Below, one piece after another: positions 4,889 through 25,709 of a stretch of 64,000 nucleotides of DNA. Below the pieces are notes generated by a model, which saw nothing but the letters and a program-made list of their open reading frames with translations, ran no database searches and had not been told where the DNA came from. Position 1 is the stretch's first letter; each line of letters starts with the position of its first letter. A program made the position numbers and the translations under genes. This stretch comes from Opitutales bacterium (GTDB lineage Bacteria > Verrucomicrobiota > Verrucomicrobiia > Opitutales > UBA2987): positions 1,021 to 65,020 of the forward strand of contig JAJFLV010000175.1 of NCBI GenBank assembly GCA_021772535.1, read 5' to 3'.

Positions 4889-4905
4889 GGTGAAGTAGCG
4901 ATATT

Positions 4906-6042: not shown

Positions 6043-6072
6043 TGGACGGGCTGTTGCCCTAACCTTGTTCCG

Positions 6073-6576: not shown

Positions 6577-6591
6577 TTTGGATCTTATCTT

Positions 6592-7122: not shown

Positions 7123-7152
7123 TGCCTAATAATTCTCCTCCACCGGCTGGAT

Positions 7153-7617: not shown

Positions 7618-7619
7618 GG

Positions 7620-9008: not shown

Positions 9009-9017
9009 GGAGGATTT

Positions 9018-9503: not shown

Positions 9504-9587
9504 GCCTTGAATCTCCTTCTTTTTTGCGATTTTTGTATTTTTAAAGGCGCTTCAAGTTAAATCATGACCGGAAAATAATCAAAGTGT

Positions 9588-10475
9588 TTATTCAATCACT
9601 TTCAAAAGACTATTGCCCCGCAATTTTTTCAATTTTCGCAAAGTTTCCAGGTCATTGATGTTATCTTTTCCCTTGGGTGTTTCCAGGCACAGGGGAATTT
9701 CGGCAAATGCATCATGGCCCATGATTACTTGAAAACATTCCCAGCCGATTTGTCCCTGGCCCAAAAGCGCGTGCCGGTCTTTGCGCCCTCCCAAGGGGCC
9801 TTTGCTGTCATTGAGGTGAACACAGACCACCTTTTCCCAAGGAAGTAATTGAGAAAATTCAGCGATATATTTTTCAATATCCGCCTTGGTTCGCAAATCG
9901 TATCCAGCCGCAAAAAGGTGGCACGTATCAAGGCAAATCCGTAGCCGTTTCCGGTGATGCGAGGCGTTCAACAGCATTGCCAGGTGTTCGATTTTGCCTC
10001 CCAGCAAAGTTCCCTGTCCGGCGGTTGCCTCCAGGGCAATGCGGGTGGTCCCCTCAAACCGATGAAATATCCAGTCGAGCGAATCCAGGATTCTCTCCAG
10101 ACCCTCTTCTTCGCCAGTCCACAAATGGGCTCCCGGATGCAACACAATAAAGGGAAGCTCCAGCAAGCGGCATCGCTCCAGTTCGTCGAGTAGGGAAATC
10201 CGGGATTTTTCCAGATTTTCAGGGTTGTTGGAGGCAAGGTTGATCAGGTAACCAGCGTGGGCAAAGATTGTTTTTATTCCCGTCTCGTCTCTGGCTGCGC
10301 GGAATTTCCTGACCGACTCATCGGTGAGCGCAGATCCCTTCCATTGCATGTTGTTCTTGGTAAAAATCTGAACAACCTCGCAGCCGAGGTCCCGGCCCAG
10401 ATAAAGAGCTTTATGGTGGCCTCCGGCAATCGAACAATGAACTCCGATCCTGTGAGATGTGGGCTGTAAACTCAT
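9588..10475 (-). CDS. nfo: Deoxyribonuclease IV (endonuclease IV)
   Basis: 'IGVHCSIAGG', 'FAHAGYLINL', 'VLHPGAH', 'LE.TAGQG' and 'CLDTCHLFAAGYD'. The ORF track gives a GTG at 10517. The ATG at 10475 (MSLQP) fits the family N-terminus. Confidence 0.85.
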   Translation of the reverse strand: MSLQPTSHRIGVHCSIAGGHHKALYLGRDLGCEVVQIFTKNNMQWKGSALTDESVRKFRAARDETGIKTIFAHAGYLINLASNNPENLEKSRISLLDELERCRLLELPFIVLHPGAHLWTGEEEGLERILDSLDWIFHRFEGTTRIALEATAGQGTLLGGKIEHLAMLLNASHHRKRLRICLDTCHLFAAGYDLRTKADIEKYIAEFSQLLPWEKVVCVHLNDSKGPLGGRKDRHALLGQGQIGWECFQVIMGHDAFAEIPLCLETPKGKDNINDLETLRKLKKLRGNSLLKVIE

Positions 10476-10663
10476 TTTATCTTTTGCATGGGGGATTAAC
10501 TCATTTTCTGAATGCACCCTTTTCAGAGGTTCAAAATCAATAGAATTGGTTATTTCGCAGCTTTGGTTTTACATTTTTCAGAGAAAACTATAAATCAATT
10601 ATCAGCCAGTTCCTTTATAAATTGTTTCGGTTGCGAAATTCCAACTGGGAGAAGGAGATACCT

Positions 10664-11611
10664 ATGAAGAAAATCGCTCGCCTGAAAATCACTGAGCGCC
10701 CCAAGCAAACTCTTCGCATCAACTTGACTCTCGTTTTGTTGGCTGGCTTGGCACACGGTTGTGTGTCACTGGAGAAAATTGCCGCCAACAAAATGGGCAA
10801 TGCCTTGGCTTCGGGCGGGACCGCTTTTACCTCGGACGACGACCCTGAACTGGTGGGAGCGGCCATGCCCTTCAGTCTTAAATTGATGGAATCGCTTCTC
10901 GATCAAGTTCCAGAGCACCAGGGGCTTCTCTATGCCACTGTCAGCGGGTTTACCCAATACAGCTATGCATTTGTGCAGCAGAAGGCTGATTTACTGGAAG
11001 ACACTGATTTGGAGGCGGCCTTCGCTCTTCGCAACCGGGCCCGGCGGCTATATCTCCGTGCTCGTGGTTATGGGTTACGAGGACTTGAGGCCAATATACC
11101 CGGTTTTGAGGCGAAATTGCGGGAGAGTCCTTTGGTTGCCGTTAAAATGACTAACGTGAAGGAGGTCCCACTTCTCTACTGGACGGCTTCGGCCTGGGTA
11201 TCCGCCATAGCCATATCCAAGGAGGCCGATTTGATCGGTGATCTTCCGATTGTGGATGCCCTTATTGATCGTGCCCTGGAATTGGATGAATCCTACGACT
11301 ACGGTGCAATTCACTCCTTTCTCATTACTTACGAAATGAACCGCAGCAAAGATGGCGAATCCCCTGAAACTCGTTCCCGGCGCCACTATAAACGAGCGGT
11401 CGAGCTCTCCAACGGGTCGCAAGCGGGGCCTTACGTTGCCCTGGCCGAAGCGGTTTCCATTCCAAACCAGAATCGTTCTGAGTTCCTGGCACTTCTCAAT
11501 AAGGCTCTCGCCATTGATGACGGAATACGTCCAGAATGGCGATTAGCCAATATCATCATGCAACGAAGGGCGCGATGGCTCCTGGACCGTGTAGATCGTT
11601 ATTTCCTTTGA
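10664..11611 (+). CDS. TRAP transporter TatT component (TPR-like periplasmic/lipoprotein accessory)
   Basis: Signal/lipobox-like 'LVLLAGLAHGC'. Helical-repeat body with 'DDPELVGAAMPFSLKLMESLL' and 'LLYWTASAW', matching my memory of the TatT family. GGAGAAGGAGA RBS before the ATG at 10664. Immediately upstream of DctP and DctQM genes. Confidence 0.7.
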   Translation: MKKIARLKITERPKQTLRINLTLVLLAGLAHGCVSLEKIAANKMGNALASGGTAFTSDDDPELVGAAMPFSLKLMESLLDQVPEHQGLLYATVSGFTQYSYAFVQQKADLLEDTDLEAAFALRNRARRLYLRARGYGLRGLEANIPGFEAKLRESPLVAVKMTNVKEVPLLYWTASAWVSAIAISKEADLIGDLPIVDALIDRALELDESYDYGAIHSFLITYEMNRSKDGESPETRSRRHYKRAVELSNGSQAGPYVALAEAVSIPNQNRSEFLALLNKALAIDDGIRPEWRLANIIMQRRARWLLDRVDRYFL

Positions 11612-11653
11612 TAATGTGGGACAAACCTTAAGCCTGCCACCAATTGCGAACGA

Positions 11654-12706
11654 ATGTATTTTCTGAAAAACGCCCCATCCTCAATGCGAATCGCCTTCCA
11701 AACGTTCCTCCTTTTGACAGTCGTCATGACCCAATTCCTTCCGGCTAAAATGGCTGCGGCGGAGAAACGACACATCATAAAGCTAACTACTATTGCGCCC
11801 AAAGGGGGGTCCTTTCATCGGTCCCTCCAGCGTATGGGGCAGGCTTGGCGGGAAGCCTCCGGAGGTTCCGTGGAATTGATCATCTACCCCGGAGGCATTC
11901 AGGGAGGAGAAGCCGCCATGGTGGACCGGATGCGGATCAAACAGGTTCAGGCCGGTCTGCTCACCACTACCGGATTGAGCGAGATCGAACCAGCGGTTTC
12001 CGGACTGCAGTTCATGCCCATGATGTTTCAAAATCTCTCGGAAGTCGATTATGTCAGTAAAAAGCTGCGCCCCAAGCTGGAAAAGCGACTGCGGGATAAA
12101 GGCTTCATCGCTTTGTTTTGGGCCGATGTGGGCTGGGTGCGTTTTTTTTCCAGGAATCGGGTGGTGACCCCGGATGATTTAAGAAAAACCAAGCTCTTTA
12201 CCTGGGCCGGAAGCACTGGCACGGCCGACACTTTTCGGAAAGCCGGATTCAAGGTGGTGCCACTCGAACCGGAGGATGTCCTGACCAGTATGCAGACCGG
12301 TCTCATCGATGCTGCCCCCATGCCTCCTTTGATTGCCCTGGGTTCACAAATCTATACCCCGGCTCCCCACATGCTGGAACTCAATTGGTCCCCGCTGGTT
12401 GGGGCTCTCGTCATCTCGAGGGAGGTTTGGGAGGAGATCCCTTTTCCCATACGGATGGAAATGGTTAAGTCCGCAGGTGTGGCAGGAAGTGAAATCAAAG
12501 AAACCGGGCGTCGGGAGAACGAAGAAGCCGTCCGCACAATGCAAGAAAAATGGGGGCTGCAAGTTCAGAAGGTCTCCCCGGAAATCGAAGCATTGTGGCG
12601 ACGGGAAGCGGAAGGAGTTTACGAATTCATTCGCACCAGGATAGTTCCTACCGAGATTTTCGACGAGGTGCGGCGGCAACTGGAGGAATACCGAAAAGGT
12701 AAATAA
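11654..12706 (+). CDS. TRAP transporter substrate-binding protein (DctP family)
   Basis: Signal peptide followed by a DctP-like body ('LKLTTIAPKGGS', 'VELIIYPGG'). Operon position between the TatT and permease genes. Confidence 0.8.
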   Translation: MYFLKNAPSSMRIAFQTFLLLTVVMTQFLPAKMAAAEKRHIIKLTTIAPKGGSFHRSLQRMGQAWREASGGSVELIIYPGGIQGGEAAMVDRMRIKQVQAGLLTTTGLSEIEPAVSGLQFMPMMFQNLSEVDYVSKKLRPKLEKRLRDKGFIALFWADVGWVRFFSRNRVVTPDDLRKTKLFTWAGSTGTADTFRKAGFKVVPLEPEDVLTSMQTGLIDAAPMPPLIALGSQIYTPAPHMLELNWSPLVGALVISREVWEEIPFPIRMEMVKSAGVAGSEIKETGRRENEEAVRTMQEKWGLQVQKVSPEIEALWRREAEGVYEFIRTRIVPTEIFDEVRRQLEEYRKGK

Positions 12707-12717
12707 ACCGGCATACG

Positions 12718-14589
12718 ATGAAATCTCAGGACGCTGCTGAAAGCCCGCCTAAAAATAGCGGCAAATCATTGTTGCGAACTGGTTTTCGCCACTTGGAGAA
12801 CCTGCTGGTGACACTTTCTCTGGGCGGCATGGTAATACTGCCGCTGGCAGAAGTCGTTTTGCGCAAACTGTTCCAGCAAAGCATTTCCGGAGTTACTGCC
12901 ATGGTACAGCACCTGGTGCTGGTCTCTTCCGTGCTGGGGGCGGCAGTTGCCGCCCGGGAAGACCGCCTTCTAGCCATGTCCACGGTAACCACCTTTCTCC
13001 ATGGACGTTGGAAAATCGCAGCCTCCGTTTTCAGCGGAGCATTTGCAATCGCCATCAGCGTTGGGCTGGCGACGGCCGGAACTCAGTATGTCCTCATTTC
13101 CAGAGAGGCAGGAAAAATCTTGGCCTATGGGGTGCCGGTATGGGTTGTTCAAGCGATAATGCCGCTCGGGTTTGCGGTCATTGGTTGGCGGATCCTTCGC
13201 AACACGGCCAAATCCTGGAAGAGCGGTATTCTCATCCTGGCCTTAAGCGGACTTCTCGTTGGCATCGGAATTTATCCACCCTTTGATCCTGAAAACCTGG
13301 TCCTCCCAGCGCTCCTTCTCCTTGTTGCTGCCATCGTCTTGGGCGCTCCCATTTTTTCCGCTTTGGGCGGAGCCGCCCTCATTCTTATCTGGGGAGCGCA
13401 CAATCCCATCGCATCCATCGCTGTTGATCATTATCGGATGGTTTTGAACCCGTCACTGGGGGCCATACCCCTGTTTACCCTGGCCGGTTATTTCCTGGCC
13501 GAAGGCGGCGCTTCCAAACGCCTCATCAACGTTTTTCAAACGCTTGTGGGTAGGATAAAAGGTGGCCCGGTCATCGTCACGGCGCTGGTTTGCGCGTTTT
13601 TTACCTCTTTTACAGGAGCCTCCGGGGTGACCATTCTAGCCCTCGGTGGGCTTCTTATGCCGGTCCTTGTATCCGCCCGATACAGTGAAAAGGATGCCAT
13701 TGGGCTGCTTACTTCGGCCGGTTCACTGGGGCTATTGTTTCCGCCCTGCCTCCCGCTCATCCTGTTTGCCGTTGTGGCTACTTCAAATGGCGCCACCGTC
13801 ACTATTAAAGAAATTTTCCTGGGAGGAGTCGGCCCGGGGATTCTGATTGTCGCCCTGACGGCCTGGTGGGGTGTACGCCGGGCTTCTCCCACCGCCTCAA
13901 AGGAGGATCTGCCGAAATTCGATTGGCAGGCGGCAAGACGGGCAATTTGGGCGGCAAAATGGGAATTACTTTTGCCGGTCGTTGCCCTCACGGCGCTTTT
14001 CGGAGGATTCGCCACCCCCGTGGAAGCCGCTGCTGTTACCGCTCTCTATGCCTTTATTGTGGAAACTTTCATCTACCGCGATCTGAAATTCTTTCGTGAC
14101 ACCACGAGGGTGATGACGGAATGCGGCCTGTTGGTGGGGGGCGTGCTCTTAATCCTCGGGGTGGCGATGGGCTTCAATAATTACCTGATCGATGCACGAT
14201 TGCCTGACCGGATCGTGGATTGGGTTAGTCAGACGATCGAATCCCGCTGGTTGTTCCTGCTTTCCCTGAACTTTTTCCTCCTGCTGGTAGGCTGTGTGAT
14301 GGATATCTTCTCCGCCATTGTAGTGGTGGTGCCTTTGATTATTCCCATGAGTTTGGCTTTCGGAATCGATCCGATTCACCTGGGGATCATCTTTTTGGCC
14401 AACCTGGAACTCGGTTATCTGACCCCTCCGGTGGGCATGAATCTCTTCCTCTCCGCCATGCGATTCAAAAAATCGCTCCCCTACGTTTACCGGTCCGTTC
14501 TGCCGTTGCTGCTGGTGCGAATACCAGGAGTTTTATTAATAACCTATTTTCCGCCTCTGACACTGATATTGCCAGGGTTCCTTGAGTAA
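12718..14589 (+). CDS. TRAP transporter fused small/large permease (DctQ-DctM)
   Basis: 623-aa polytopic membrane protein. N-terminal ~170 aa are DctQ-like (4 TM) and the remainder is DctM-like ('FTSFTGASGVTILALGG', 'GYLTPPVGMNLF'). Confidence 0.85.
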   Translation: MKSQDAAESPPKNSGKSLLRTGFRHLENLLVTLSLGGMVILPLAEVVLRKLFQQSISGVTAMVQHLVLVSSVLGAAVAAREDRLLAMSTVTTFLHGRWKIAASVFSGAFAIAISVGLATAGTQYVLISREAGKILAYGVPVWVVQAIMPLGFAVIGWRILRNTAKSWKSGILILALSGLLVGIGIYPPFDPENLVLPALLLLVAAIVLGAPIFSALGGAALILIWGAHNPIASIAVDHYRMVLNPSLGAIPLFTLAGYFLAEGGASKRLINVFQTLVGRIKGGPVIVTALVCAFFTSFTGASGVTILALGGLLMPVLVSARYSEKDAIGLLTSAGSLGLLFPPCLPLILFAVVATSNGATVTIKEIFLGGVGPGILIVALTAWWGVRRASPTASKEDLPKFDWQAARRAIWAAKWELLLPVVALTALFGGFATPVEAAAVTALYAFIVETFIYRDLKFFRDTTRVMTECGLLVGGVLLILGVAMGFNNYLIDARLPDRIVDWVSQTIESRWLFLLSLNFFLLLVGCVMDIFSAIVVVVPLIIPMSLAFGIDPIHLGIIFLANLELGYLTPPVGMNLFLSAMRFKKSLPYVYRSVLPLLLVRIPGVLLITYFPPLTLILPGFLE

Positions 14590-14602
14590 AATCCTTCCAC
14601 CT

Positions 14603-17434
14603 TCACAGGCCCTTGTCTTCAATCGGCGGTCCAAGAGGAGGCAGGAGCATTTCCCTGTCCTTGTTTTTATCCGTTCGGGACCGTTGGGGGTCAGGATTGC
14701 TGAAAACATTGCGGGGATCTATTTGGAATCGCCATCTGGGGTTATCAAGAGTGCCTCGCAGATGCAGTTCTAGAGCGGATTCGAGGGGGTTTAACAATGG
14801 ACCAAGAACGGATAAGAGGGATTTCTCTTCGCTTTCAAAAAAATTGACGCGAACCTTGAAATCGAGGTTGTGGTCCGGCATGACGATGTTGCCGTTAGCG
14901 CTGATCAGAGATCCGGGTCCGGAAAAATTGACTTCGGGAAATTGTATCAGGTTTTCATTGAGAAAAAATTGGCAATCGGCGGAATCGAGTTTGAGAGTGG
15001 TAAAATCAACCCAGGTTCCATAAAGGGCGCGGGAGAGACCTCCAAAGAAATGCACCGTACCTAATTCTGCTTGAGTTATCTTTAAACTGCCCAAGCCTGT
15101 GAAACTTAAAATATCTCCATGGACCCCAACAGCGCTGAAATCGACGTCCAGAAGCCCGCTTTTCCCGATTCCCTTTCCCACAATTGGGGAACCATCTATA
15201 GGTTCATCCCTATTCCCAACGTCACCTTTATTAGTTGTATTAAGCCCGAACAAGTCGAACGCTTTTAGGTGGTCGGCTCCTCTCAGGCTCAGTTTCATGT
15301 CCAATTGAAGGTCGGTTTCCAAAGCCCCCCAAGTGAGATGGCCTGTTCCATCTCCACCGGCAAATCCGAAGCGAATCTGATCCATATCAAAAAGGTCATC
15401 TTCAAAGTGGGCTTCGAATTGCAGGTAGTCGAGTGGGTACTGGCGATATTTGAAAGGTTCCTCGGAAACCGCTTGCAAACGAAGCTTTCGATGGATTTGC
15501 CAGGGTGAGGTGGGAAAATAAAGATTTCCCTTGAGGTGAAGGCGCGCTGGAGTGGAAAGGTGGAAGTCGCCAACCACCGCCGCGACCTCGGGACCCAAGA
15601 GGGCAGACAACGGTCCAAGGTGGATGCTTGTTTCAAGGTCAAGAATTCGCGCGACCGCTTTTCTCTCGAGAAAAACCCAATTTACGGACCCCTCTACCTT
15701 CCCTTCTGGACGGGTGGCATGGAGATCGAAGATTTCGATGAAACCGGGGCGGCTCCAGCATTTTAGATCGTAAGTTTCAAAAATTGTGGAATGGAAAGTG
15801 ACATTTTCACCGTTAAATCCGCCGTAGAAAAAGTTGAGTCTGTTAGTCTTCCAATTTCCTTTTGCTTCCAGGTCCGATCGCAGCAAATATTCAGAAAATT
15901 CAATATTCTTCCAGACATTGTCCCACCAATCCGGCATGATTGGGTTGAGTGGAACCGGATCTCCCTCGCCGGCCAGAAGAAGTTGATAATCGCCTTGTTT
16001 GAGGTCAACTACCAACGATCCATCAACCCGTTCACTCCGCTTTTCGAGGACGTAATGGGTCAGCTGGACCTCATCTGGTACAACCTGGCCCCGGGCCGCG
16101 AATCTGAGAAAATTGGCACCTCCAAAGTCTAATGGACCTGCCTTCAGATTAAACTCGGCTTTCTTAAATATAAACCCCGGCTCGAAGTGGCTGTTCAAAC
16201 GTAAACGGGGAGGAGAAAAAAGGATCAGTCTTTCCAGAGCCGCCGCCTTGCCCAGGCGACTGCTGATGGCGGCCCTCAGCTCCTCGGTAAGCGCCGCTCT
16301 GGAATCGAGGCTCAATTGGCCGCTTAATTGATCGAGATTGAAATCACCGCTCAGACGGACCAGACGGTTTTGCAACAATCCCTGAACTGAGCCGTTAACG
16401 AGAGGAAAGGATGGCGCTGAAATTTCACCGCCAGGGGCCATCAAAACCAAGCCTCCAGCGTCCAGACGGCCTGCCGTAAACCGGGCTCGCTCCACCTGGG
16501 CGGAGAGCAGGTTTTTAGGCTTGTCGGCAAAAAGAAGAATTTCACAATCCGATGCCTTCACGCGGTTTTCCCAATTGAGATTATCAACCCGAAGATAAAT
16601 CGGTTCAGGTAATTCCAACCGGGGCATATCGATTCGGGGGATCTCCAACCGAAAAAGTCCGCAGTTCAAACCGGCAGGGCCCTGCAGGGAGTTTCCGCTT
16701 AATTGGAATCGTGCCTTGGGCCGTTCGCCTTTGGTGTAAGAGAGGGCGATCCCAGCCACCGGATTTTCCAATGCCTGCAATTTCGAGGACAATTCGAGGA
16801 CCTGGCGGCAAAGGAAAAGATATCGCTCCAGAGGCCGTGGCCGAAAGGCGGGCTCCGCTAGTGGTCCCCGGGGAAGCGTAAATCCTGCCTGTGGCCAGCT
16901 TCCCTTGGCGTGAGCCCGCAAATTTTGAAATTTGAAGTCAAACCTCTCAATTTCCCAACCATTATTTTGCCGCCTGAATTGGCCATGGATTTTTTCAGCC
17001 AACGTTTGGGGGACTCCGCTATTGGAGTAAAAAGCCGGGCAAATCAGGCTCCCGTTTTGAAAAATGAAGGAATCCACACTTACCCTTTGCATAAGAAGCA
17101 GCGGCAAATCGAGTGTCAGTTTCAAGGAATCGAATTGCCCCAGCAATTCTCCGCCACCCGCCTTGAGAATTTTCAACCGTCGGGCGGTTACGCGGCCCAG
17201 AAGGTCGAAATGAAGATCATCCGCCTTGGCATAGAGACCGTAATCGGCCAGGTTTTCTTCCAGGTTTTTGAGGACAAAGCCCGGCACTGGGATCACTTTA
17301 TTGGTAATTAAAAACCCGGCCAGAATTCCCTGGGCCAAAACCAGCAGCAACAAAAAGGTGTTCAGACTATAGAGACAGATGAAGTAAAAAATCAGACTTC
17401 TTTTCGAAATCTTCCTCTTTAAATTAAGGATCAT
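14603..17434 (-). CDS. Large N-terminally anchored envelope protein, AsmA/TamB-like (function unknown)
   Basis: 943 aa. Single N-terminal TM (LIFYFICLYSLNTFLLLLVLAQGILAGFLI), a long beta-rich body, and a C-terminal 'LHLRGTLDNPRWRF' resembling the G-[ST]-h-x-x-P terminal motif of AsmA-family proteins. Starts 27 nt downstream of the DUF4340 gene. Confidence 0.7.
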   Translation of the reverse strand: MILNLKRKISKRSLIFYFICLYSLNTFLLLLVLAQGILAGFLITNKVIPVPGFVLKNLEENLADYGLYAKADDLHFDLLGRVTARRLKILKAGGGELLGQFDSLKLTLDLPLLLMQRVSVDSFIFQNGSLICPAFYSNSGVPQTLAEKIHGQFRRQNNGWEIERFDFKFQNLRAHAKGSWPQAGFTLPRGPLAEPAFRPRPLERYLFLCRQVLELSSKLQALENPVAGIALSYTKGERPKARFQLSGNSLQGPAGLNCGLFRLEIPRIDMPRLELPEPIYLRVDNLNWENRVKASDCEILLFADKPKNLLSAQVERARFTAGRLDAGGLVLMAPGGEISAPSFPLVNGSVQGLLQNRLVRLSGDFNLDQLSGQLSLDSRAALTEELRAAISSRLGKAAALERLILFSPPRLRLNSHFEPGFIFKKAEFNLKAGPLDFGGANFLRFAARGQVVPDEVQLTHYVLEKRSERVDGSLVVDLKQGDYQLLLAGEGDPVPLNPIMPDWWDNVWKNIEFSEYLLRSDLEAKGNWKTNRLNFFYGGFNGENVTFHSTIFETYDLKCWSRPGFIEIFDLHATRPEGKVEGSVNWVFLERKAVARILDLETSIHLGPLSALLGPEVAAVVGDFHLSTPARLHLKGNLYFPTSPWQIHRKLRLQAVSEEPFKYRQYPLDYLQFEAHFEDDLFDMDQIRFGFAGGDGTGHLTWGALETDLQLDMKLSLRGADHLKAFDLFGLNTTNKGDVGNRDEPIDGSPIVGKGIGKSGLLDVDFSAVGVHGDILSFTGLGSLKITQAELGTVHFFGGLSRALYGTWVDFTTLKLDSADCQFFLNENLIQFPEVNFSGPGSLISANGNIVMPDHNLDFKVRVNFFESEEKSLLSVLGPLLNPLESALELHLRGTLDNPRWRFQIDPRNVFSNPDPQRSRTDKNKDREMLLPPLGPPIEDKGL

Positions 17435-17461
17435 GCTTTGCTGGTAAACCCGGAATTTGAG

Positions 17462-19447
17462 CTATTGCCCTGCTTCGGCATCGGACTCCACAGAGCTTTC
17501 GATTGGAAGATCCGAATCGGGCGCTGCCGGTTTCTCCATGGGCAAAGTTTCGGGGAGCGACGGGGCAACATCCTCCAGACCACGGGTCTCGCGTCGAAAG
17601 GCGAGAGTGAACAGGGAATCGATGAGTTCCTGGTTTAACTCGAAAACAATATTATAATCGGGGGAGCCGCCAATTTGGGTCGTACCGCCGAGCCGTTCGG
17701 TAAAATAAAAATTGTAGGTGCGCAACTGGTCCTCGGTTCCGCCAGGAAGGCTGATTTTTGCCTTCAGAAGGTATTTCCAGGGCAATATCTTTTCCCCCAA
17801 ATTGAATTTGTCGGAAAATTCGTTCCGCAAGTAGGATTTCACTTTGAATTGGCTCGAATACCGCAATAAGGTTTCAGCCTCTTCACGCTCATTTTCCGGC
17901 AACAAAGCCAGCGCCTCCAAAAATCCAGGCAATTCTCCATCCTTCGGGTGAACTTCATCGTTGCCGGGGTAGCCCTGCCGATCCAAAGCAAATAGATTTT
18001 CCCCGCTTTGCAAATCGCTCAAGGTGACAGCTTCAATAACGGCTGACTTGGGTTGGCGGTGAAAAACCCGGGATCGAAAATGGAGGGCGCGTGCTTGCAA
18101 ATGCTTCAAAATTTCAACAGGCACTTGATAAACGAAAGGTTCCGACTCCATTTTGGCGTAAATCAGGTCGCCGGTTGAATCCAGGTCGCCGAGCAAAAGA
18201 ACATGGTCCAGAGCAGCACGAAGGGTGATCCGCCTTTGTGGGTCGGTAAACCCGAATTGAGCTAGATCGGCTTCCGCCGGGGCATTGGTGGGAAAGCTGA
18301 CCGCTTCCAGTTCGAGCAGGGAGACAATGAGATCGTTAACCAAAGAGGGCTCTGCCGGCCAAGTCTGTAAAGCGCCTGATAAATCCTTGGTGGGCAACTG
18401 CCAACCACCGGTTTCGAATTTCTGTAGGGTCACTCGCCTGTCACCCGCTGCTACCTCAATTTCGTTTAAAGTGGTCGCCTTGAACCGCACGAATTTTTTC
18501 TCGCGCAACGTTTCCTGCGCTTTCAGCAGATTGTCAAAAGGCTCCGCCGGAACGGTGAAAACTGTGGCGTTGTCGGATATTTTGGCATACTTTCGCAGAT
18601 TTCCCGAGTCGCTCGGGGCATCACTGCCAAGCAAAAGCGTTTGCCTCCGGTTGTTGCCCTCAATAGTTACTCTAGCTGCGATCGAGGCGTCGTCCAATCC
18701 TTGTCCCGGAAGATCGGCAGATAGAAAGTCGGTTGCGCGAATCGCAGTCAGCCGGTTAATGGCGGTTTCCACTAAAGCTGCGTCGGCCTTGGTTTGGATA
18801 GGGGTAAGAAAATTCCATTGGTTCTCATTCCGTTCAATCCGAACGATAGTATTGCCCGGACTGACGACGATCCGCAAAGCCTTTACTTCAAAAAGTGGAA
18901 TGTTGAATACTTTCGACTCCCGAAGGTCAGCCAGTTCTACGGAAATGCTTTCAAACAATTCACGGGTGACGACAAAGACTTCGTTCTGATCGGGGGACAG
19001 GATGTAGAGGCGGTCACCAAATCCCGTCGGTTCACCAATTCTGAGGATCGACTTATTTCTGCCCTGGCCCAGTGTGAGTATGGCTTGGGGCTGAACCAGG
19101 CCGTAATCTTCGAGAGAACGGCCTGCCTTATCGATTTCGCTAACAGAAAAAGAAGACTCTTTTTCCAGAAATTGGAGCTGGTTGAGAATTCGGCTGACAG
19201 CAAAAAAATTCGCCGGCCAATTGATCGGGTTGGTTATGCTCCACTGTTCTCTGGTCTTATTTAAAATCCAATGGGCATTGGGGTCCTGCACCTTAATTTC
19301 CAGGTAATCGGCATTTTCGACGAGACCTGCCGGCAATACCGGACCGACTCCGGGAAGATCGGTTTCCGGGCGTTTTTCGATTATGAAAATAATTCCGAAG
19401 AGCGCCAGATTGAGGACGATGAGCAAAATTGTGAATTTGAGTCGCAT
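17462..19447 (-). CDS. DUF4340 domain-containing protein (ABC/GldG-associated)
   Basis: N-terminal TM (MRLKFTILLIVLNLALFGIIFII). Repeated modules of the type 'W.l..P....AD...V..L...L..l.a..F' and 'YGL..P...I.L'. I chose the ATG at 19447. The ORF-track start (19627) would overlap the upstream gene by 166 nt. Confidence 0.75.
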   Translation of the reverse strand: MRLKFTILLIVLNLALFGIIFIIEKRPETDLPGVGPVLPAGLVENADYLEIKVQDPNAHWILNKTREQWSITNPINWPANFFAVSRILNQLQFLEKESSFSVSEIDKAGRSLEDYGLVQPQAILTLGQGRNKSILRIGEPTGFGDRLYILSPDQNEVFVVTRELFESISVELADLRESKVFNIPLFEVKALRIVVSPGNTIVRIERNENQWNFLTPIQTKADAALVETAINRLTAIRATDFLSADLPGQGLDDASIAARVTIEGNNRRQTLLLGSDAPSDSGNLRKYAKISDNATVFTVPAEPFDNLLKAQETLREKKFVRFKATTLNEIEVAAGDRRVTLQKFETGGWQLPTKDLSGALQTWPAEPSLVNDLIVSLLELEAVSFPTNAPAEADLAQFGFTDPQRRITLRAALDHVLLLGDLDSTGDLIYAKMESEPFVYQVPVEILKHLQARALHFRSRVFHRQPKSAVIEAVTLSDLQSGENLFALDRQGYPGNDEVHPKDGELPGFLEALALLPENEREEAETLLRYSSQFKVKSYLRNEFSDKFNLGEKILPWKYLLKAKISLPGGTEDQLRTYNFYFTERLGGTTQIGGSPDYNIVFELNQELIDSLFTLAFRRETRGLEDVAPSLPETLPMEKPAAPDSDLPIESSVESDAEAGQ

Positions 19448-19461
19448 GTTTATCGAGGCGA

Positions 19462-20946
19462 TTAATGCCGGCGGATCCACCCGACGGCGATTCCCATTAT
19501 GGCGAGCAACCCGGGGATCGTCAGGAGAATCAACCCAAGTCTGTTCAATTCCGGCTTGCTGAGGGGTAATTGGAATTTTTCGATGGGCCGCGGGGGAATG
19601 GCCAGCATGCGGTCGCGGCCCAGACACCAGTTTATGGTGTTTAAAAAAAGCATGAAATTGCCGATGGAGCCAATCCTCTGGTTGGCAATGAGGTCTGAGT
19701 TGCCAAATGTGACCAGCCTCCCGCCGGAAAGGTTGATGCCCAGATTCGAGGACACCTTGCGTTCCGATACAGCCGCAATGCTGATTGGTCCTTTCAGGTC
19801 GGTTGCCAAATCGAATTTAAGGTCATCCAGATCGCGGACCTGCCGGTAGGAACGCTCGGCCCAACTGTTTTCCGAGGAGGCCAATAATTGAACGGTGCTT
19901 AAGCGTTCGTCCAGGGGCGAGCCAAGATCGAAACGGACGGGCCGGGTAACTCCCATCATAACGGGAATATGGTTTTTCAAAAGAATGTCGGTGATGGGGT
20001 GTTGGGCAAACCTCCGTATAAGCAAATCACCGTTTGTCTCTTGATAATCCGGGCCCGTATCGACGATCAGCATATCATCGGTGAGGATGCCCCATTCGTA
20101 AAAAAGGTCTTCCAATCCGTGTTTGCGCCAGGGATCGATGAGCACAATCAGACGCCCGGCCTTGTCCCCCAGAAATTTGCGCAACTTTTCCACTTCCTGT
20201 TCCATCAGAGGGCCTTGGGGAGAGGCGATCACGACCAGGTTGGCCTCTTCCGGCACTTCGGGGGCCAAGGCCAGGTCGAGATTCTCCATCTCAATATTTC
20301 TCTCCTCCAATTGTTGCGCCAACTCCGAAAGCCCTCTCTTCGGGTCCACATCGTCCAGACGCATTTCTCCATGACCGGCCAGAAAATAGACCTTTTGCTT
20401 TCGATCCCCGGTAACTTCCATGAGGGCTGAAGTAAAAGCCTTTTCTCCTTTGAAGGCCGAGGGCAAGCCGTCCGTGAGATCGACAATATCGGTCGGAAGC
20501 AGTTGCCGCCGTTTGTCCCCGCTAACTACCAGGATGAGGTTGGGTTGGTTTATTCCGTAGGTTCGATAGATGATATCGGCCTTTCTGATTTCTTTGTATA
20601 CATCGACAAATTCGACCTCGATTTTCCGCTTGCCCCCTTTCTGACCGGCATATTCGTATTCTCTGAGCAGCCTCTGCACGTATTTGTAGATATGGCGCAG
20701 TTCCTCCTGGGGGGATTCTTCGGGGATGGTGACAATGATTTTAGCGATAGCTTCCATCTTGTCGATTTCGGCCACCGTTTCCGGGGAAAGCGAGTATATA
20801 TGGTTGTGGGAAAGATCGAACCTCTTGAAGTGCCGCGTGGCCAAAGAGTTTAAACCAACGATCAAGACTATGCTAAGGAGGATCTGCGCACCCCGGTTGA
20901 TGCGTTTATACCAATTGACGATTCTAAAATCTTCCGGGAAATGCAT
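19462..20946 (-). CDS. GldG-family ABC transporter auxiliary protein
   Basis: 494 aa with N- and C-terminal TM helices flanking a large periplasmic domain ('VYFLAGHGE', 'VVIASPQ', 'LIVLIDP'). Follows the ABC-2 permease gene after a 5-nt spacer. Confidence 0.8.
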   Translation of the reverse strand: MHFPEDFRIVNWYKRINRGAQILLSIVLIVGLNSLATRHFKRFDLSHNHIYSLSPETVAEIDKMEAIAKIIVTIPEESPQEELRHIYKYVQRLLREYEYAGQKGGKRKIEVEFVDVYKEIRKADIIYRTYGINQPNLILVVSGDKRRQLLPTDIVDLTDGLPSAFKGEKAFTSALMEVTGDRKQKVYFLAGHGEMRLDDVDPKRGLSELAQQLEERNIEMENLDLALAPEVPEEANLVVIASPQGPLMEQEVEKLRKFLGDKAGRLIVLIDPWRKHGLEDLFYEWGILTDDMLIVDTGPDYQETNGDLLIRRFAQHPITDILLKNHIPVMMGVTRPVRFDLGSPLDERLSTVQLLASSENSWAERSYRQVRDLDDLKFDLATDLKGPISIAAVSERKVSSNLGINLSGGRLVTFGNSDLIANQRIGSIGNFMLFLNTINWCLGRDRMLAIPPRPIEKFQLPLSKPELNRLGLILLTIPGLLAIMGIAVGWIRRH

Positions 20947-20951
20947 TTTAT

Positions 20952-21731
20952 TTACGTTTTCGCCTCCACAATCAATACGGCCAGACCCAACACCATGGCG
21001 CTATTGCAAATGTAAAAAAAGAAGGGCCGGGTATCGATTACTCCAAGGCTGAAATCTTCCAGATGTTTGAAAACCTGCACAATGTTGAGTATTTCCCCCA
21101 GCCAGGGAAACCAGGCCAGGGATTCTTCCTGCAACTCACGCATTCCGATGATAATGATAAAGAGTATGCAAAAACTGAGCATGGCGGCAACAAACTGGCT
21201 GCGGGTCAGACTGCTCGAAAAAATTCCCACGGCGATAAACAGAAGTCCACTCACAGCGACAAATGAATAACCTCCCAGAAGGGCTCCCCGATCCATCAAA
21301 TGGCTTCCCGTGGCTGGAGAATCCAGACTCAAACTGACTAGCCAGGGAAATCCCAAGGTGAGCAGCCAGAGGAAACAGTAAAACAGGTAGGCCGCGAAAA
21401 ATTTGCTGGCGATGACTTCCAGCGCGGTGACCGGTGTCGTCATGAGTGTTTCCAGCGTGCCTGTGCGACGCTCTTCGGCCACACTTTTCATGGTCAGCAA
21501 AGGTACCACGAAAAAAACCGGCAGCCAGAAGAGTTGAAAAAACATGCTGGCGGGCAAACCTTCCTGCGGTTCAAGGCTGTATTGCAGTAAAATTTTCCAG
21601 TAAATCCACCCCATCAGGACTAAGAACAAGACCCCTGCGGCATAGGTTGAAGGAGCGATGAGAAGGGCTCTCAGTTCGTGGTGCAATAAACTGAAAAAAT
21701 GTTTCATGACGCTAGGCCGCATCCCTCCCAA
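20952..21731 (-). CDS. ABC-2 type permease (GldF-like)
   Basis: 259 aa, about six TM helices, with 'EERRTGTLETLMTTPV' typical of ABC-2/GldF permeases. Its start abuts the ATPase stop. Confidence 0.8.
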   Translation of the reverse strand: MGGMRPSVMKHFFSLLHHELRALLIAPSTYAAGVLFLVLMGWIYWKILLQYSLEPQEGLPASMFFQLFWLPVFFVVPLLTMKSVAEERRTGTLETLMTTPVTALEVIASKFFAAYLFYCFLWLLTLGFPWLVSLSLDSPATGSHLMDRGALLGGYSFVAVSGLLFIAVGIFSSSLTRSQFVAAMLSFCILFIIIIGMRELQEESLAWFPWLGEILNIVQVFKHLEDFSLGVIDTRPFFFYICNSAMVLGLAVLIVEAKT

Positions 21732-22769
21732 TCAGGAGGATTCCTGGTTTGTATTGTTGTCCCTGGATTTTGTGGAAGGCAAGACCTCCTTCCAACTGCG
21801 GCGGGTGGCCGATAGAAATATATCCTCCAGGCTGGATTCGACCCGGTTGAAGGAGCGCAGGCTCATGTCGGGCTGGCGCTGAAACCATGCCATTATCTGT
21901 TCACTGAGATCTTCTCTCTGTGGTGTAGACAGGGTGATGTTTATAAATCCGTTTTTGTCGGGTTTTCCCATGGGGGACCAAGTCATGTTCGGATCGATAT
22001 CCCGGAGCAATTGTCCCAGATTTTCCAATCCGCCTTTCAGAGTAGCCTTGTAGGTATATTTATTAATGAACTCCTTACGCAGTGATTCAGCCGTGCCGGA
22101 GGCAACAATGCGGCCTTGATTGATTATTATAACCCGATCGCAGGACAACTCGACTTCGGCCAGCATGTGGCTGGAAATGATAACCGCCATCTTTCCGCGA
22201 AAAGATTCGATCAAATCCCTGATGGCAATAATCTGGTGAGGATCCAGCCCGATGGTCGGTTCATCCATAATAATGACTTTGGGCTCGGCCAGGATAGCAT
22301 CGGCAATACCGATACGCTGGCGATAACCCTTGGAAAGGGTGCCGATTACCTTGTTTCGAATTTTTTGGTTCAGATCGCAAAGATCGAGAACTTCCTCCAG
22401 CCTGGTTTTCAATCTTTTGGTAGGGATTTCCTTCAGCCGGGCCCGGTATCTCAGATATTCCAGCACCCTCATATCCTCCGGCAAGGGATTGTTCTCAGGC
22501 ATATAGCCGATTAGTCGCTTGACCTCCTCAATGCGGGTCGCCACCGATAAGCCGCCGATCCGGGCTATTCCCGAGGTGGCTGGAATCAACCCGCATAGAA
22601 TCCGAATGGTGGTGCTTTTACCGGCCCCGTTGGGTCCCAAAAATCCAACCACTTCTCCATGGGCAACCTTGAAGGAAACATCGTCAACTGCGGTAACGTG
22701 ATGATATCTCTTGGTGAGGTTCCGAACCTCTATGCTGGACCCGTCCATAGTCAAAATTTTTCCTGACAA
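21732..22769 (-). CDS. ABC transporter ATP-binding protein (GldA/CcmA-like)
   Basis: Walker A 'GPNGAGKST', Q-loop, signature 'LSKGYRQR', Walker B 'IIMDEPTIGLD', H-loop 'SSHML'. Has an extra ~100-aa C-terminal domain. Confidence 0.9.
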   Translation of the reverse strand: MSGKILTMDGSSIEVRNLTKRYHHVTAVDDVSFKVAHGEVVGFLGPNGAGKSTTIRILCGLIPATSGIARIGGLSVATRIEEVKRLIGYMPENNPLPEDMRVLEYLRYRARLKEIPTKRLKTRLEEVLDLCDLNQKIRNKVIGTLSKGYRQRIGIADAILAEPKVIIMDEPTIGLDPHQIIAIRDLIESFRGKMAVIISSHMLAEVELSCDRVIIINQGRIVASGTAESLRKEFINKYTYKATLKGGLENLGQLLRDIDPNMTWSPMGKPDKNGFINITLSTPQREDLSEQIMAWFQRQPDMSLRSFNRVESSLEDIFLSATRRSWKEVLPSTKSRDNNTNQESS

Positions 22770-22897
22770 CTGCTATGGGCTACATCCTGCCCGAGAAATT
22801 CCGATTTCTACTTTTTGGCATTTCTGCGTTTTTCTCAGTAAGCACATTTTATCTTTAGACACCGCAAAGGGCAAGAAGGGTTCGAAAAATTATTGAA

Positions 22898-23668
22898 TTA
22901 CTGGCGGGCATAGGCTTCCGCCAACCCGATCAAAGTAATATGAGGATTAAACTCAATATCCGATAACCAGGTTTGCGGCAATATTCCCGCACTTCCGCCG
23001 GTAGCCACTACTTTGGCCTCGTCTTCACCTCGTTCCCGAAGCTCGCGCTGAACTCGTTCCAGAAGGGCCCGGATCATCCCTTCAAAACCCACTGCGCAGC
23101 CAAGCTTCATCGCCTCGACCGTTGTTTTGCCGATTCCTGCCGAAACCATAAGGTCGTTGGGGTCCAGTTTCGGCAGCAAGGCGGTGCGCTCATGCAGATA
23201 TCGTGTAATTACATCCAGACCCGGAGCAATGATCCCCCCTTCGTAACCTTTGCTCGATACAATGTCGAAGGTGACGGCAGTGCCCATATCGATAACTATC
23301 ACCGGCGGGCCGTAAAGTATCTGGCCGGCCACGGCATTGGCCAAAATATCCTGACCGATTTCGCGTATATCGGGAAAATTGAATTTCAAGGGGCAGTTTT
23401 CGCAGGTAATCTGATAAACGGGCCGTGACCACCCGACATTTTCTAAAAGATCGCGGAATTGCGTCGTTACGTCGGGTACCACGGAACCGAAGGCCATTCC
23501 TTCAACCCCGGAACCCTCAGGGCCATATTTTTGCAATACGGGCAATATCCCGAATTGAGGATCCTCAAGCAGCTTCGTCCCGAAAGCTCCCTCCTGCGTT
23601 ACGCGCCTTTTATTGACCAACCCGTGCTGGGTATTGGTATTATTAATATTGATACAGAGAACACTCAT
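22898..23668 (-). CDS. coaX: Type III pantothenate kinase
   Basis: 'LCININNTNT' (DxGNT-like), 'VIVIDMGTAVTFD' and 'GGIIAPG'. ATGA overlap with the birA stop. Confidence 0.9.
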   Translation of the reverse strand: MSVLCININNTNTQHGLVNKRRVTQEGAFGTKLLEDPQFGILPVLQKYGPEGSGVEGMAFGSVVPDVTTQFRDLLENVGWSRPVYQITCENCPLKFNFPDIREIGQDILANAVAGQILYGPPVIVIDMGTAVTFDIVSSKGYEGGIIAPGLDVITRYLHERTALLPKLDPNDLMVSAGIGKTTVEAMKLGCAVGFEGMIRALLERVQRELRERGEDEAKVVATGGSAGILPQTWLSDIEFNPHITLIGLAEAYARQ

Positions 23669-24675
23669 ACCGTTTTGGGCGCGAGGGTTTCGGTAGTTCC
23701 CAGGCTGACATCCCCTGCTCTTAACCTTACAATGTCCCCGTCTTCTGCGCGAAGCCGTAGGGCGCCATTCTCCTCAATTCCCTCGGCTATTCCCTGAATG
23801 TCCCCTTCATCGCCGTGGGCCTTTACCATTTTCCCTTTCAGATAGTCGTAACGCTCCCAGAGCGCTGGAAATTCGTCCACGCCAACTCCCCGGCAAAACT
23901 CATCGCAGGCGCGCACACCGCATACCACCAGTCGGGCGGTCAGAGGGTTGATGGGGATCGGTTCTCCTTTGGCTCCGGCCAGGGAGATGGCTCCATTGGC
24001 AATGGTTTCCGGCCATTCTTCACAACGGCCGTTCACATTGAGCCCGAACCCGAAAACAAGGTCGCGTGTAGAATCGGCGTCAATGCGAGCCTCGGTCAGC
24101 ATCCCGCCGGCTTTTTTCATGTGCAGAACTAGATCATTGGGCCATTTCAGCATGAGGGGCAGCCGACATAGGTTCTGCAGTTCTTGGCAAAAGTGAACGC
24201 CCATCCAAAGCGTGAAAAGCTGCATATTTCGAGGGGACATTTGAGGGCGAAAGGCCAGGCTGAGGTAGCAGTTGCCTTCCTCCGGGCTGTGCCACTTGCG
24301 TCCCAGGCGGCCTCGGCCTTGGCGCTGGCGGGAAGTGAGAACGGCAAAGGGTGCTTCCCTCCCATCGGCCAATTGCCGCTCAGCCTCGCTGTTTGTGCTG
24401 TCTAATTCCGGGTAACATAACAGGTTTGCGGTGCATCCGTACAGTGTGAGGTAAGCCCTTAAGAGAGGTCCATAAAGTTCGGATGGCTCCTCCACCAGCC
24501 GGTAGCCGGTGTGTCTTATCGCTTCAAAGACAAATCCCGCCTCCCTCAATTTTTCCAGTCTTGCCCAAACCGCCACCCGTGAAATTCCCAGTTCTTCCGC
24601 TATGGCATTGCCGGAAACAAAGCCAGGCGCTTTTTTCAGCAAGCTTTGGATTATGATGGCGTCCGTTTCAGACAT
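23665..24675 (-). CDS. birA: Bifunctional biotin-[acetyl-CoA-carboxylase] ligase / transcriptional repressor BirA
   Basis: N-terminal winged HTH ('FVSGNAIAEELGISRVAVWARLEKLREAG') plus the ligase core 'SRQRQGRGRLGRKWHSP' (GRGRxGR motif). I chose the ATG at 24675 (MSETD). Confidence 0.85.
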   Translation of the reverse strand: MSETDAIIIQSLLKKAPGFVSGNAIAEELGISRVAVWARLEKLREAGFVFEAIRHTGYRLVEEPSELYGPLLRAYLTLYGCTANLLCYPELDSTNSEAERQLADGREAPFAVLTSRQRQGRGRLGRKWHSPEEGNCYLSLAFRPQMSPRNMQLFTLWMGVHFCQELQNLCRLPLMLKWPNDLVLHMKKAGGMLTEARIDADSTRDLVFGFGLNVNGRCEEWPETIANGAISLAGAKGEPIPINPLTARLVVCGVRACDEFCRGVGVDEFPALWERYDYLKGKMVKAHGDEGDIQGIAEGIEENGALRLRAEDGDIVRLRAGDVSLGTTETLAPKTV

Positions 24676-24764
24676 AAAAAGGGAATACTTAAACAAGAAA
24701 CGGTTGGAAGCATGAACTCGGATGTCAAATCCGCAATAGCAAATCAAATGCCTGAAATCGGGTT

Positions 24765-25709
24765 TTAACTTTGCCAGTCAAAACCCATATCGACCCAATT
24801 ACTCTGATGGACAAGCGCTCCACAGGATATAAAGTCCAGTCCGATCCCGGCCAGACTGGGCAGCCGGTCCAATGTGATTCCACCGCTGGCTTCGGTACAG
24901 GCCCGGTTGCCGATTAGGGCCTGTCCCTCTACCAGGTCCGCATCGGAAAAATTATCCAGTAATATTACATCAGGCTCTACTTTCAGGATGGGGGGAATTT
25001 GATCGAGAGAGTCGACTTCGATTTCTATGAGAAGCTCCGGTCTCCGGCTGCGAGCATTTTTAACGGCTTGGGCGAGGCGATTGATCCCCTTTTCTCCTGC
25101 CTGGGCCAGGTGATTGTCTTTGAACATGATCCGGTCGAACAAACCGATCCGGTGGTTCCATCCGCCTCCGCAAGCCACCGCGTATTTTTCCAAAACACGG
25201 AAGCCGGGGGTGGTTTTTCGAGTGTCCAGGAGTTTGGTTTTGCACCAACCGAGGGCTTCTACATATTGGGCGGTCTGGGTCGCCACACCGCTCAAGTGCT
25301 GGAGAAAGTTGAGGATTACTCTTTCAGCCTGCAAAAGAACCGCGGCCGGTCCAGAAATAATTCCCAGACAAGCTTCCGCTTCCACCTGCCGGCCATCCTT
25401 GCCCAAAGGATTCCATGTGCAGCCGTGGCCGTAAATTTCCAGTATCATCGGAATCAACTGGAGTCCGCTAGGGGCCAGCGCAACCCGAGCCATGAGGGCC
25501 GCCTGACCGTTTTCCCCCGGAGCGAGGGCTTGGGTTGTGACGTCTCCCGGGATGGATGGCAAAGCAGCCAGTCCGGCCCCTTCCAGATCCTCCTTCTTGG
25601 CCAGGAGGATGAGTTGGCGCAAATAACCTGCATCCAGATCCTCCCAACCAATCCGTCGACAAAAGGATTTGGCTTCATATCTTGACCCCATCCGTGCTCC
25701 CGTCTGCAT
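24765..25709 (-). CDS. nadC: Nicotinate-nucleotide diphosphorylase (quinolinate phosphoribosyltransferase)
   Basis: 'ERVILNFLQHLSGVAT', 'LLDTRKTTPGFR..EKYAV..GGG.NHR', 'MFKDNH', 'IEVD', 'ILLDNF' and 'EASGGI'. Confidence 0.9.
   Translation of the reverse strand: MQTGARMGSRYEAKSFCRRIGWEDLDAGYLRQLILLAKKEDLEGAGLAALPSIPGDVTTQALAPGENGQAALMARVALAPSGLQLIPMILEIYGHGCTWNPLGKDGRQVEAEACLGIISGPAAVLLQAERVILNFLQHLSGVATQTAQYVEALGWCKTKLLDTRKTTPGFRVLEKYAVACGGGWNHRIGLFDRIMFKDNHLAQAGEKGINRLAQAVKNARSRRPELLIEIEVDSLDQIPPILKVEPDVILLDNFSDADLVEGQALIGNRACTEASGGITLDRLPSLAGIGLDFISCGALVHQSNWVDMGFDWQS

Follow-up and report, generated by a model that had tools for sequence, protein, structure and literature searches.

The region under study spans positions 14603–22769 of a 64,000-nt stretch of DNA (hereinafter the window), whose nearest genome matches are metagenome-assembled genomes (MAGs) of Opitutales in the phylum Verrucomicrobiota. 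It holds five open reading frames (ORFs), all on the minus strand, which encode an ATP-binding cassette (ABC) ATPase, an ABC-2 permease, a GldG-like protein, a DUF4340 protein and a protein of 943 amino acids (aa). The gene for the 943-aa protein, hereinafter gene 5, very probably specifies a divergent member of the AsmA-like superfamily, and its attachment to the four-gene ABC module is the main subject of this analysis. The five genes and the spacer upstream of them are as follows.

22770–22897 (minus strand): spacer of 128 nt between coaX and the ABC ATPase gene, the sole sizeable gap upstream of the five genes
21732–22769 (minus strand): ABC ATPase of the GldA/DrrA type (PF00005, E 2e-28; TIGR03522 GldA, 268 bits)
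20952–21731 (minus strand): ABC-2 permease, GldF-like (PF12730/PF12679/PF12698; TIGR03518 GldF, 105 bits)
19462–20946 (minus strand): GldG-like auxiliary protein (PF09822 (ABC_transp_aux), E 2.7e-21; PF23357 (DUF7088), E 3.9e-8; TIGR03521 GldG, 47.4 bits)
17462–19447 (minus strand): DUF4340 protein, 661 aa (PF14238, E 3.9e-52, three matched stretches)
14603–17434 (minus strand): 943-aa protein, in all likelihood divergent AsmA-like (YhdP/AsmA branch; profile homology and AlphaFold2 (AF2) model)

A first-pass annotation of this DNA had described five co-directional, tightly packed genes that join a GldA/GldF/GldG-type ABC module and DUF4340 to the 943-aa protein. The ORFs are present at the coordinates it gave, and Pfam and NCBIfam assign all four genes of the module as it did. 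Its gaps of 5 nt between the permease and GldG-like genes, 14 nt between the GldG-like and DUF4340 genes (counted from ATG 19447, where the conserved N-terminus MRLKFT... begins) and 27 nt between the DUF4340 gene and gene 5 likewise agree with ours. The Walker A (GPNGAGKST), signature (LSKGYRQR) and Walker B (IIMDEP) motifs that it had called intact are all readable in the translation of the ATPase, which also carries a C-terminal extension of about 100 aa.

One junction has to be redrawn. The ATPase stop was said to abut the permease start at 21732/21731, which rests on the TTG start of the longest ORF, whereas orthologues begin with MKHF..., corresponding to ATG 21707. From this ATG the permease has 251 aa and an N-terminus (MKHFFSLL...) that is conserved in orthologues, which puts the probable ATPase/permease gap at about 24 nt. 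The ATPase itself probably starts at ATG 22748 and not at TTG 22769. We favour ATG 19447, ATG 21707 and ATG 22748 because the N-termini of orthologues are conserved there, and the longest-ORF starts GTG 19627, TTG 21731 and TTG 22769 are probably artefacts of the ORF finder; the longer DUF4340 ORF from GTG 19627 was rejected since the conserved MRLKFT... begins downstream of it. The stretches affected by the choice of start are 19448–19627, 21708–21731 and 22749–22769 on the minus strand.

No signal that would divide the cluster into separate transcripts emerged. A pattern scan found no terminator-like site between any of the five genes, and the 27-nt spacer before gene 5 (17435–17461), where a terminator or promoter had been named as a possible break, holds neither a terminator-like hairpin nor a strong promoter match; counts of terminator- and promoter-like sites in the region do not exceed the shuffled expectation. 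The 128-nt spacer ahead of the ATPase gene is a candidate site for the operon promoter and contains a weak sigma-70-like match (TTGCCC-17-TAAAAT, 22874–22846; 9/12), which is not above chance expectation. In an Rfam scan of both strands of the 64-kb window, no family attained its gathering score.

The two auxiliary proteins of the module are both predicted to be anchored in the membrane. The GldG-like protein has hydrophobic segments at its N- and C-terminus, and its large middle domain is predicted to be periplasmic. The AF2 model of the DUF4340 protein (predicted local distance difference test (pLDDT) 87.6; predicted template modelling score (pTM) 0.72) suggests a membrane helix at the N-terminus and, after it, some eight small four-strand-plus-helix modules strung in a chain, among them the three units that Pfam matches to DUF4340 and a beta domain at the C-terminus. 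A Foldseek search of this model against the PDB returned nothing at E<1e-3, leaving the protein with no solved structural relative there and a LolA-, LptA- or Lpt-like lipid-binding fold unsupported. A weak resemblance to sliding-clamp/PCNA modules reached a template modelling (TM) score of about 0.1 in Foldseek and was rejected as noise. Homologues of the DUF4340 protein bear the names Opitutae, Opitutaceae, Lentimonas and Rariglobus. In the full-text literature searched, DUF4340 is mentioned in four papers only; one of these, a transposon-sequencing study of Verrucomicrobium spinosum, reports an essential DUF4340 domain (PMC12283558).

Family and predicted fold of the 943-aa protein

The 943-aa protein matches 0 Pfam families at E ≤ 1 in a direct scan and nothing in a direct search of PDB sequences. 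Its sole NCBIfam match is to GspN (TIGR04411, a Leptospira-type GspN model) over residues 56–121, at E 3.7e-5 and 23.3 bits against a cutoff of 50. A word-indexed homologue search recovered 8 proteins only, which made the family look rare; this was overturned by an exhaustive profile search of 1.84 billion representatives, which recovered 2655 cluster representatives of the family at E ≤ 1e-3, 718 of which reach E ≤ 1e-30; almost all measure 900–960 aa and align over their full length. The profile search places the protein in a large, unnamed family.

At the profile level, this family is tied to AsmA-like proteins through both of its ends. Among 53 diverse members scanned with Pfam, 28 match YhdP, 6 match AsmA and 4 match DUF748, and GspN is matched at the N-terminus by 38 of the 53 (best E 3e-10). 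The matches are co-linear, family residues 30–130 corresponding to DUF748 positions 17–119 and family residues ~790–880 to YhdP positions 1092–1222 of 1224. Run against 5.8 billion sequences, the family profile reaches, with E from 9e-60 to 9e-6, proteins for which AsmA, DUF748, YhdP or TamB domains are precomputed. Alignment of the profile by hhalign with two Pfam-annotated AsmA/DUF748 proteins gives probabilities of 96% (E 6e-9) and 93% (E 3e-7) over the last ~250 residues; alignment with residues 1010–1253 of Escherichia coli YhdP gives a probability of 73% (E 3e-5), and E. coli AsmA yields a weaker co-linear match of 374 columns. No match to E. coli TamB (DUF490) was obtained by hhalign. 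The orthologue in Lentimonas, 24% identical over 888 residues, matches PF13116 (YhdP) at E 2.6e-10 and 39.3 bits against a cutoff of 46, and one family member is named "AsmA-like C-terminal region-containing protein" by NCBI.

Profile homology to recognised AsmA-like members is thus co-linear at the N-terminus and at the C-terminus, and we consider it highly likely that the 943-aa protein is a divergent member of the superfamily on its YhdP/AsmA side, not its TamB side. By profile evidence it is a member of the superfamily, yet it is assignable to no curated family within it. The AsmA-like character proposed in the first-pass annotation consequently holds as remote homology to YhdP, AsmA and GspN profiles, conserved across the family and backed by no curated model above its threshold; the protein itself has no Pfam match, and its GspN match is sub-threshold. 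Over the middle ~500 residues, no sequence similarity to known AsmA-like members can be detected. The protein can be divided as follows.

Residues ~56–121: GspN/DUF748-like segment
Residues ~630–905: AsmA/YhdP-like segment
Residues 906–943: disordered tail

Ahead of these segments, residues 1–12 form a positively charged N-terminus (KRKISKR), followed at residues ~13–43 by a hydrophobic stretch, a membrane helix that AF2 places at residues 11–44. By the positive-inside rule, a single N-terminal inner-membrane anchor is predicted, with the remainder of the protein in the periplasm. The AF2 model (pLDDT 75, pTM 0.52) predicts a body of about 51% beta-strand, arranged in about seven blocks with short helices between them, and the strands alternate hydrophobic and polar residues (amphipathicity z=6.5 against shuffled controls). 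A Foldseek search of the model against the PDB gave only generic beta-sheet matches to the LptD barrel and the ApoB100 belt (TM 0.10–0.23), which we count neither for nor against the fold.

In its predicted N-terminal anchor, in the long beta-rich body with amphipathic strands suggested by the model, and in the homology of its C-terminal region to the C-terminus of YhdP/AsmA, the protein resembles the AsmA-like proteins of Proteobacteria (YhdP, AsmA, YdbH and TamB). YdbH, at 879 aa, is also close to it in length. By contrast, its position below the curated models, the dissimilarity of the middle ~500 residues and the lack of TamB/DUF490 similarity set it apart from the proteobacterial proteins.

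Linkage of gene 5 to the ABC module

Loci carrying gene 5 were drawn from MAGs, Logan assemblies, a cultured Lentimonas genome and a metagenome scan. DUF4340 lies directly upstream on the same strand in 10 of 10 distinct MAG and Logan loci with upstream context, which include three homologues of 25% identity and one locus with overlapping reading frames, and it lies likewise directly upstream of the AsmA-like gene in the Lentimonas genome. The metagenome scan, made with a subfamily alignment, added 80 further loci with 30–99% identity to its query. There, DUF4340 is directly upstream of gene 5 in 74 of 75 testable loci, the sole exception having just 447 nt of upstream sequence; of the loci that reach 6.2 kb or more upstream, 40 of 40 carry the whole four-gene ABC module; and the median spacing is about 50 nt. 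Across the linked loci, the identity of gene 5 drops to 20–30%. About 85 independent loci share this gene order, so the arrangement is far beyond chance.

Two apparent irregularities dissolved on inspection. Twelve loci seemed to lack DUF4340 only because stop-to-stop ORFs run long in high-GC DNA, and with domain coordinates the effect vanished; and a readthrough fusion of DUF4340 with gene 5 was discarded because the two share a frame in about 35% of loci, which is the chance level.

The linkage is particular to the family of the 943-aa protein. Among the loci examined, no member of the family was found away from an ABC module, whereas a classical AsmA/DUF748/YhdP protein, a distant relative of the family, has neither ABC genes nor DUF4340 beside it at the one locus inspected, and the same is true of yhdP, tamB and asmA in E. 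coli. In this obligate position behind an ABC/GldG/DUF4340 module, gene 5 differs from the E. coli paralogues and from the classical homologue alike. The four-gene unit can stand alone: a distant module (about 24% identity) at 5573–10716 of L018/L019 consists of ATPase, permease, GldG and DUF4340 genes with no AsmA-like fifth gene and is followed by ruvA. Because the module occurs alone and the linkage is family-specific, gene 5 is, on this comparison of loci, an addition specific to the lineage, whose position has been strictly maintained from then on.

It could be argued that this adjacency has no functional meaning, gene 5 being an unrelated envelope protein that landed beside the module by ancestral chance and was inherited passively. 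All named members come from one phylum (Opitutales, Opitutaceae, Lentimonas, Cephaloticoccus and "Verrucomicrobiota"), so shared ancestry does contribute to the conservation. The flanks of the linked loci, however, have been reshuffled repeatedly, the downstream neighbour being a sulfatase, a tripartite ATP-independent periplasmic (TRAP) transporter or a sensor kinase and the upstream genes varying, and through this the five genes stay contiguous, tight and in the same order in about 85 loci with identities down to about 20%. Contiguity that survives such divergence makes neutral adjacency unlikely, and we regard this explanation as very improbable.

Gene 5 is linked near-obligately to the ABC module throughout Opitutales-type Verrucomicrobiota, and the doubt that synteny with the module might not be conserved in related genomes is removed by the 74 of 75 and 40 of 40 loci. 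Synteny that is near-absolute and family-specific therefore strongly supports, at the level of gene order, a functional link between gene 5 and the ABC module.

Known transport systems and a proposed mechanism

Among the closest known systems is the gliding-motility ABC transporter GldA/GldF/GldG of Flavobacterium johnsoniae, which has three domain families in common with the module: the DrrA/GldA-type ATPase, the ABC-2 permease and the GldG-type ABC_transp_aux protein, anchored in the membrane at its termini. Unlike the Flavobacterium system, all three subunits miss the equivalog cutoffs (GldA, 268.2 vs 402.6 bits; GldF, 105 vs 288.5; GldG, 47.4 vs 389.85), the host belongs to Verrucomicrobiota and not Bacteroidota, and the window operon adds DUF4340 and an AsmA-like gene. 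No gld genes occur among the scanned neighbours of the five-gene loci. With all three subunits far under the equivalog cutoffs and a host of the wrong phylum, the profile scores indicate that the system of the window is not an orthologue of GldAFG.

Lpt and Mla are known ABC-powered systems, and Lpt forms a bridge for lipopolysaccharide (PMC10345924). The formal analogy to LptB2FG-C-A-D put forward in the first-pass annotation survives as a concept, in that an inner-membrane ABC extractor may stand beside anchored or periplasmic proteins that possibly form a groove; it fails at the level of parts, as none of the five proteins carries an Lpt-defining domain. In Pfam and NCBIfam scans of the five proteins there is no LptF/G-type permease and no OstA/LptC/LptA beta-jellyroll, and the ATPase scores 144.8 bits against an LptB cutoff of 240. 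The putative bridge would moreover be one AsmA-like polypeptide and not the jellyroll oligomer of LptB2FG-LptC-LptA-LptDE, and no outer-membrane component is encoded. Nor is there an MlaE or MCE domain among the Pfam matches of the five proteins. Because the defining domains are absent from its predicted proteins, the system is neither an Lpt nor an Mla system, and the analogy to Lpt is conceptual only.

The reading that the evidence supports best is a single pathway for all five proteins, probably in one complex, and they would then constitute one conserved envelope-transport module of Opitutales-type Verrucomicrobiota. In such a module, the ATPase and the permease would form a homodimeric ABC-2 exporter in the inner membrane; the GldG-like and DUF4340 proteins would serve as membrane-anchored accessories with large predicted periplasmic parts; and the amphipathic beta body of the fifth protein, itself anchored in the inner membrane, may shield a route through the periplasm. 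The ABC unit would hydrolyse ATP to extract or load an amphiphilic envelope component, and would feed it into the putative AsmA-like groove, or control its flow along that groove, toward the outer membrane. As cargo, a phospholipid or glycolipid would be most likely, and the acyl portion of a lipoprotein is a possibility. What we infer here is an ATP-energised lipid conduit in which the proteins would associate physically and the coupling to ATP would set a lipid moving in one direction. The idea has forerunners in the ABC-powered Lpt and Mla systems (PMC10345924) and in the AsmA-like GspN, which acts on lipoproteins together with the type II secretion (T2SS) machine (PMC12802150).

That the five proteins make up one energised envelope-transport machine is a proposal we advance tentatively. 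Its stricter form, in which an ATP-driven ABC-2/GldG/DUF4340 extractor is hard-wired to an AsmA-like bridge, loading lipids or lipid-anchored cargo into the groove of the gene-5 protein and so imposing direction to the outer membrane, is possible but doubtful. Several observations weigh against coupling of this kind. The four-gene module occurs without gene 5 in another lineage, which implies a function of its own, and no outer-membrane partner is encoded in the five-gene cluster. The 943-aa protein stays under the curated threshold for every AsmA-like superfamily model (Pfam AsmA PF05170, DUF748 PF05359, YhdP PF13116, TamB PF04357; GspN), and its predicted model finds only low-TM, generic matches by Foldseek. 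In E. coli, bulk phospholipid flow is reported to depend on the proton-motive force and not on ATP (PMC10345924). Finally, the mlaEFD and tamB genes of Negativicutes share a conserved operon, yet genetics indicate that they act in opposition and are not coupled (PMC10665443).

The Negativicutes case lends substance to a different account, in which a passive bridge of the YhdP type and an independent ABC/GldG/DUF4340 transporter would be co-regulated and mechanically separate, balancing one another, for example through retrograde transport or quality control. The shared operon would in that event serve stoichiometric or co-ordinated expression, resembling the mlaEFD/tamB arrangement. The mlaEFD-tolC-tamB operon is conserved in all Negativicutes, and loss of tamB suppresses mla phenotypes, which indicates opposing roles for the two (PMC10665443). 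Like the cluster of the window, the Veillonella parvula operon is lineage-wide and places an AsmA-like protein together with an ABC transporter, there one for lipids (PMC10665443); unlike it, the ABC transporter is of the MlaE/MlaF type with an MCE protein, the AsmA-like protein is TamB, and genetics indicate antagonistic functions. That the four-gene module is found alone elsewhere, that classical AsmA-like proteins (the classical homologue and E. coli yhdP, tamB and asmA) need no adjacent ABC transporter, and that the housekeeping neighbours nadC-birA-coaX suggest general envelope housekeeping are further points in favour of two separate systems. Against them, gene 5 keeps its position right after DUF4340 in 74 of 75 loci, with frames often overlapping or nearly abutting and at 20–30% identity, which is tighter than co-regulation usually maintains, and no locus of the 943-aa family was found outside the module. 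On balance we judge separate systems somewhat less likely than one energised machine, albeit an explanation to be taken seriously.

A further possibility concerns the cargo and not the machine. The five proteins could form a single machine that handles something other than bulk membrane lipid, such as a lipid-linked glycan, a surface polysaccharide, a lipoprotein or another amphiphile, with the AsmA-like protein acting as a GspN-like chaperone groove for a hydrophobic moiety or as an outer-membrane assembly factor. ABC-2 exporters typically handle lipid-linked polymers, as in Wzm/Wzt and TarGH, and the GldAFG homologues of Bacteroidetes affect surface motility and are not known to transport lipids; both points favour a cargo of this sort. 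So does the strongest direct match of the 943-aa protein, which is GspN, shared with 38 of the 53 members scanned. [quoted passage not shown] It is an AsmA-like beta-taco protein that is needed for the surface display of lipoproteins and not for phospholipid transport (PMC12802150), and, like the window protein, whose N-terminal ~65 matched residues fit the GspN model, it has an inner-membrane anchor and is encoded inside the operon of a transport machine (PMC12802150). By contrast, GspN is far shorter (the NCBIfam model has 280 positions), its partner is the T2SS and not an ABC transporter, and its cargo is lipoproteins. [quoted passage not shown] We consider a cargo other than bulk membrane lipid improbable.

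Full-text literature on DUF4340, GldG-like proteins, PF09822, PF14238 or AsmA-like proteins together with ABC transporters contains no description of the five-gene operon that we could find; the component families are known, and their obligate combination is apparently undescribed. How AsmA-like proteins extract lipids from the inner membrane, in which direction they transport them and what energy they need are stated open questions, and a possible ABC extractor for AsmA-like proteins has been discussed (PMC10900882; PMC13507460). Proteobacterial models give no genetic hint, as AsmA-like genes stand alone there. The linkage described here names concrete candidate partners for an AsmA-like protein, namely an ATPase, a permease and two periplasmic accessories. 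It is lineage-wide, and it makes the energy question testable in a culturable organism, Lentimonas. It also offers a first functional handle on two orphan families, DUF4340 and the GldG-like modules outside Bacteroidetes. If the ATP-driven extractor is real, it would be the first such case and an energised counterpart of YhdP/TamB, and would provide the first function for the widespread GldG/DUF4340 ABC modules; if the parts instead oppose one another in the manner of Mla and TamB, the cluster would still mark a lipid-homeostasis unit in the little-studied envelope of the Planctomycetes-Verrucomicrobia-Chlamydiae (PVC) group.

Neighbouring genes

Directly upstream of the ABC operon lie nadC (QRPTase), birA and coaX, at 22898–25709 on the minus strand. 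Opitutales loci keep this nadC-birA-coaX neighbourhood, and among the metagenomic loci 36 of 41 have BirA upstream. BirA and CoaX both feed fatty-acid and CoA metabolism.

On the other side, a TRAP transporter with a TAtT-type T-component occupies 10622–14589 on the plus strand, comprising TAtT, DctP and a fused DctQM. It converges on gene 5, with 13 nt between the two stop codons. Most other lineages have at this place a hybrid sensor histidine kinase of about 1300 aa, on the same strand as the AsmA-like gene and following it, with a multi-transmembrane N-terminus and CHASE, two PAS, HisKA, HATPase_c and receiver domains; examples are found at 12887–15334 of L005 and 10697–14857 of L051. Such a kinase follows the AsmA-like gene in 52–53 of 69 metagenomic loci (L022–L101), a count made by similarity clustering of ORFs that possibly includes non-orthologous kinases. 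It is absent from that position in the window. Judged by its position and domains, the kinase could be a regulator of the ABC/AsmA module.

The window contains a second AsmA-family ORF, of 269 aa, at 3468–4277 on the plus strand, which matches Pfam AsmA at 36.4 bits (threshold 29.8) and also DUF748 and YhdP at its N-terminus. An hhalign comparison of this ORF with the family of the 943-aa protein showed no similarity. The two ORFs that follow it, 4307–4888 and 4906–6042, are probably grpE and dnaJ by synteny, and the 269-aa ORF is syntenic with a "DUF748" gene beside GrpE/DnaJ in an Opitutales MAG locus (L001).

In the cultured Lentimonas genome (Lentimonas sp., GCA_902728255.1), the five-gene cluster lies at 4721–14695 of locus L102. 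It is followed on the same strand by a gene for a 657-aa protein with no convincing Pfam match and a weak match to ELYS, and a TniB/TniQ transposition module is located a few kb upstream of the cluster.

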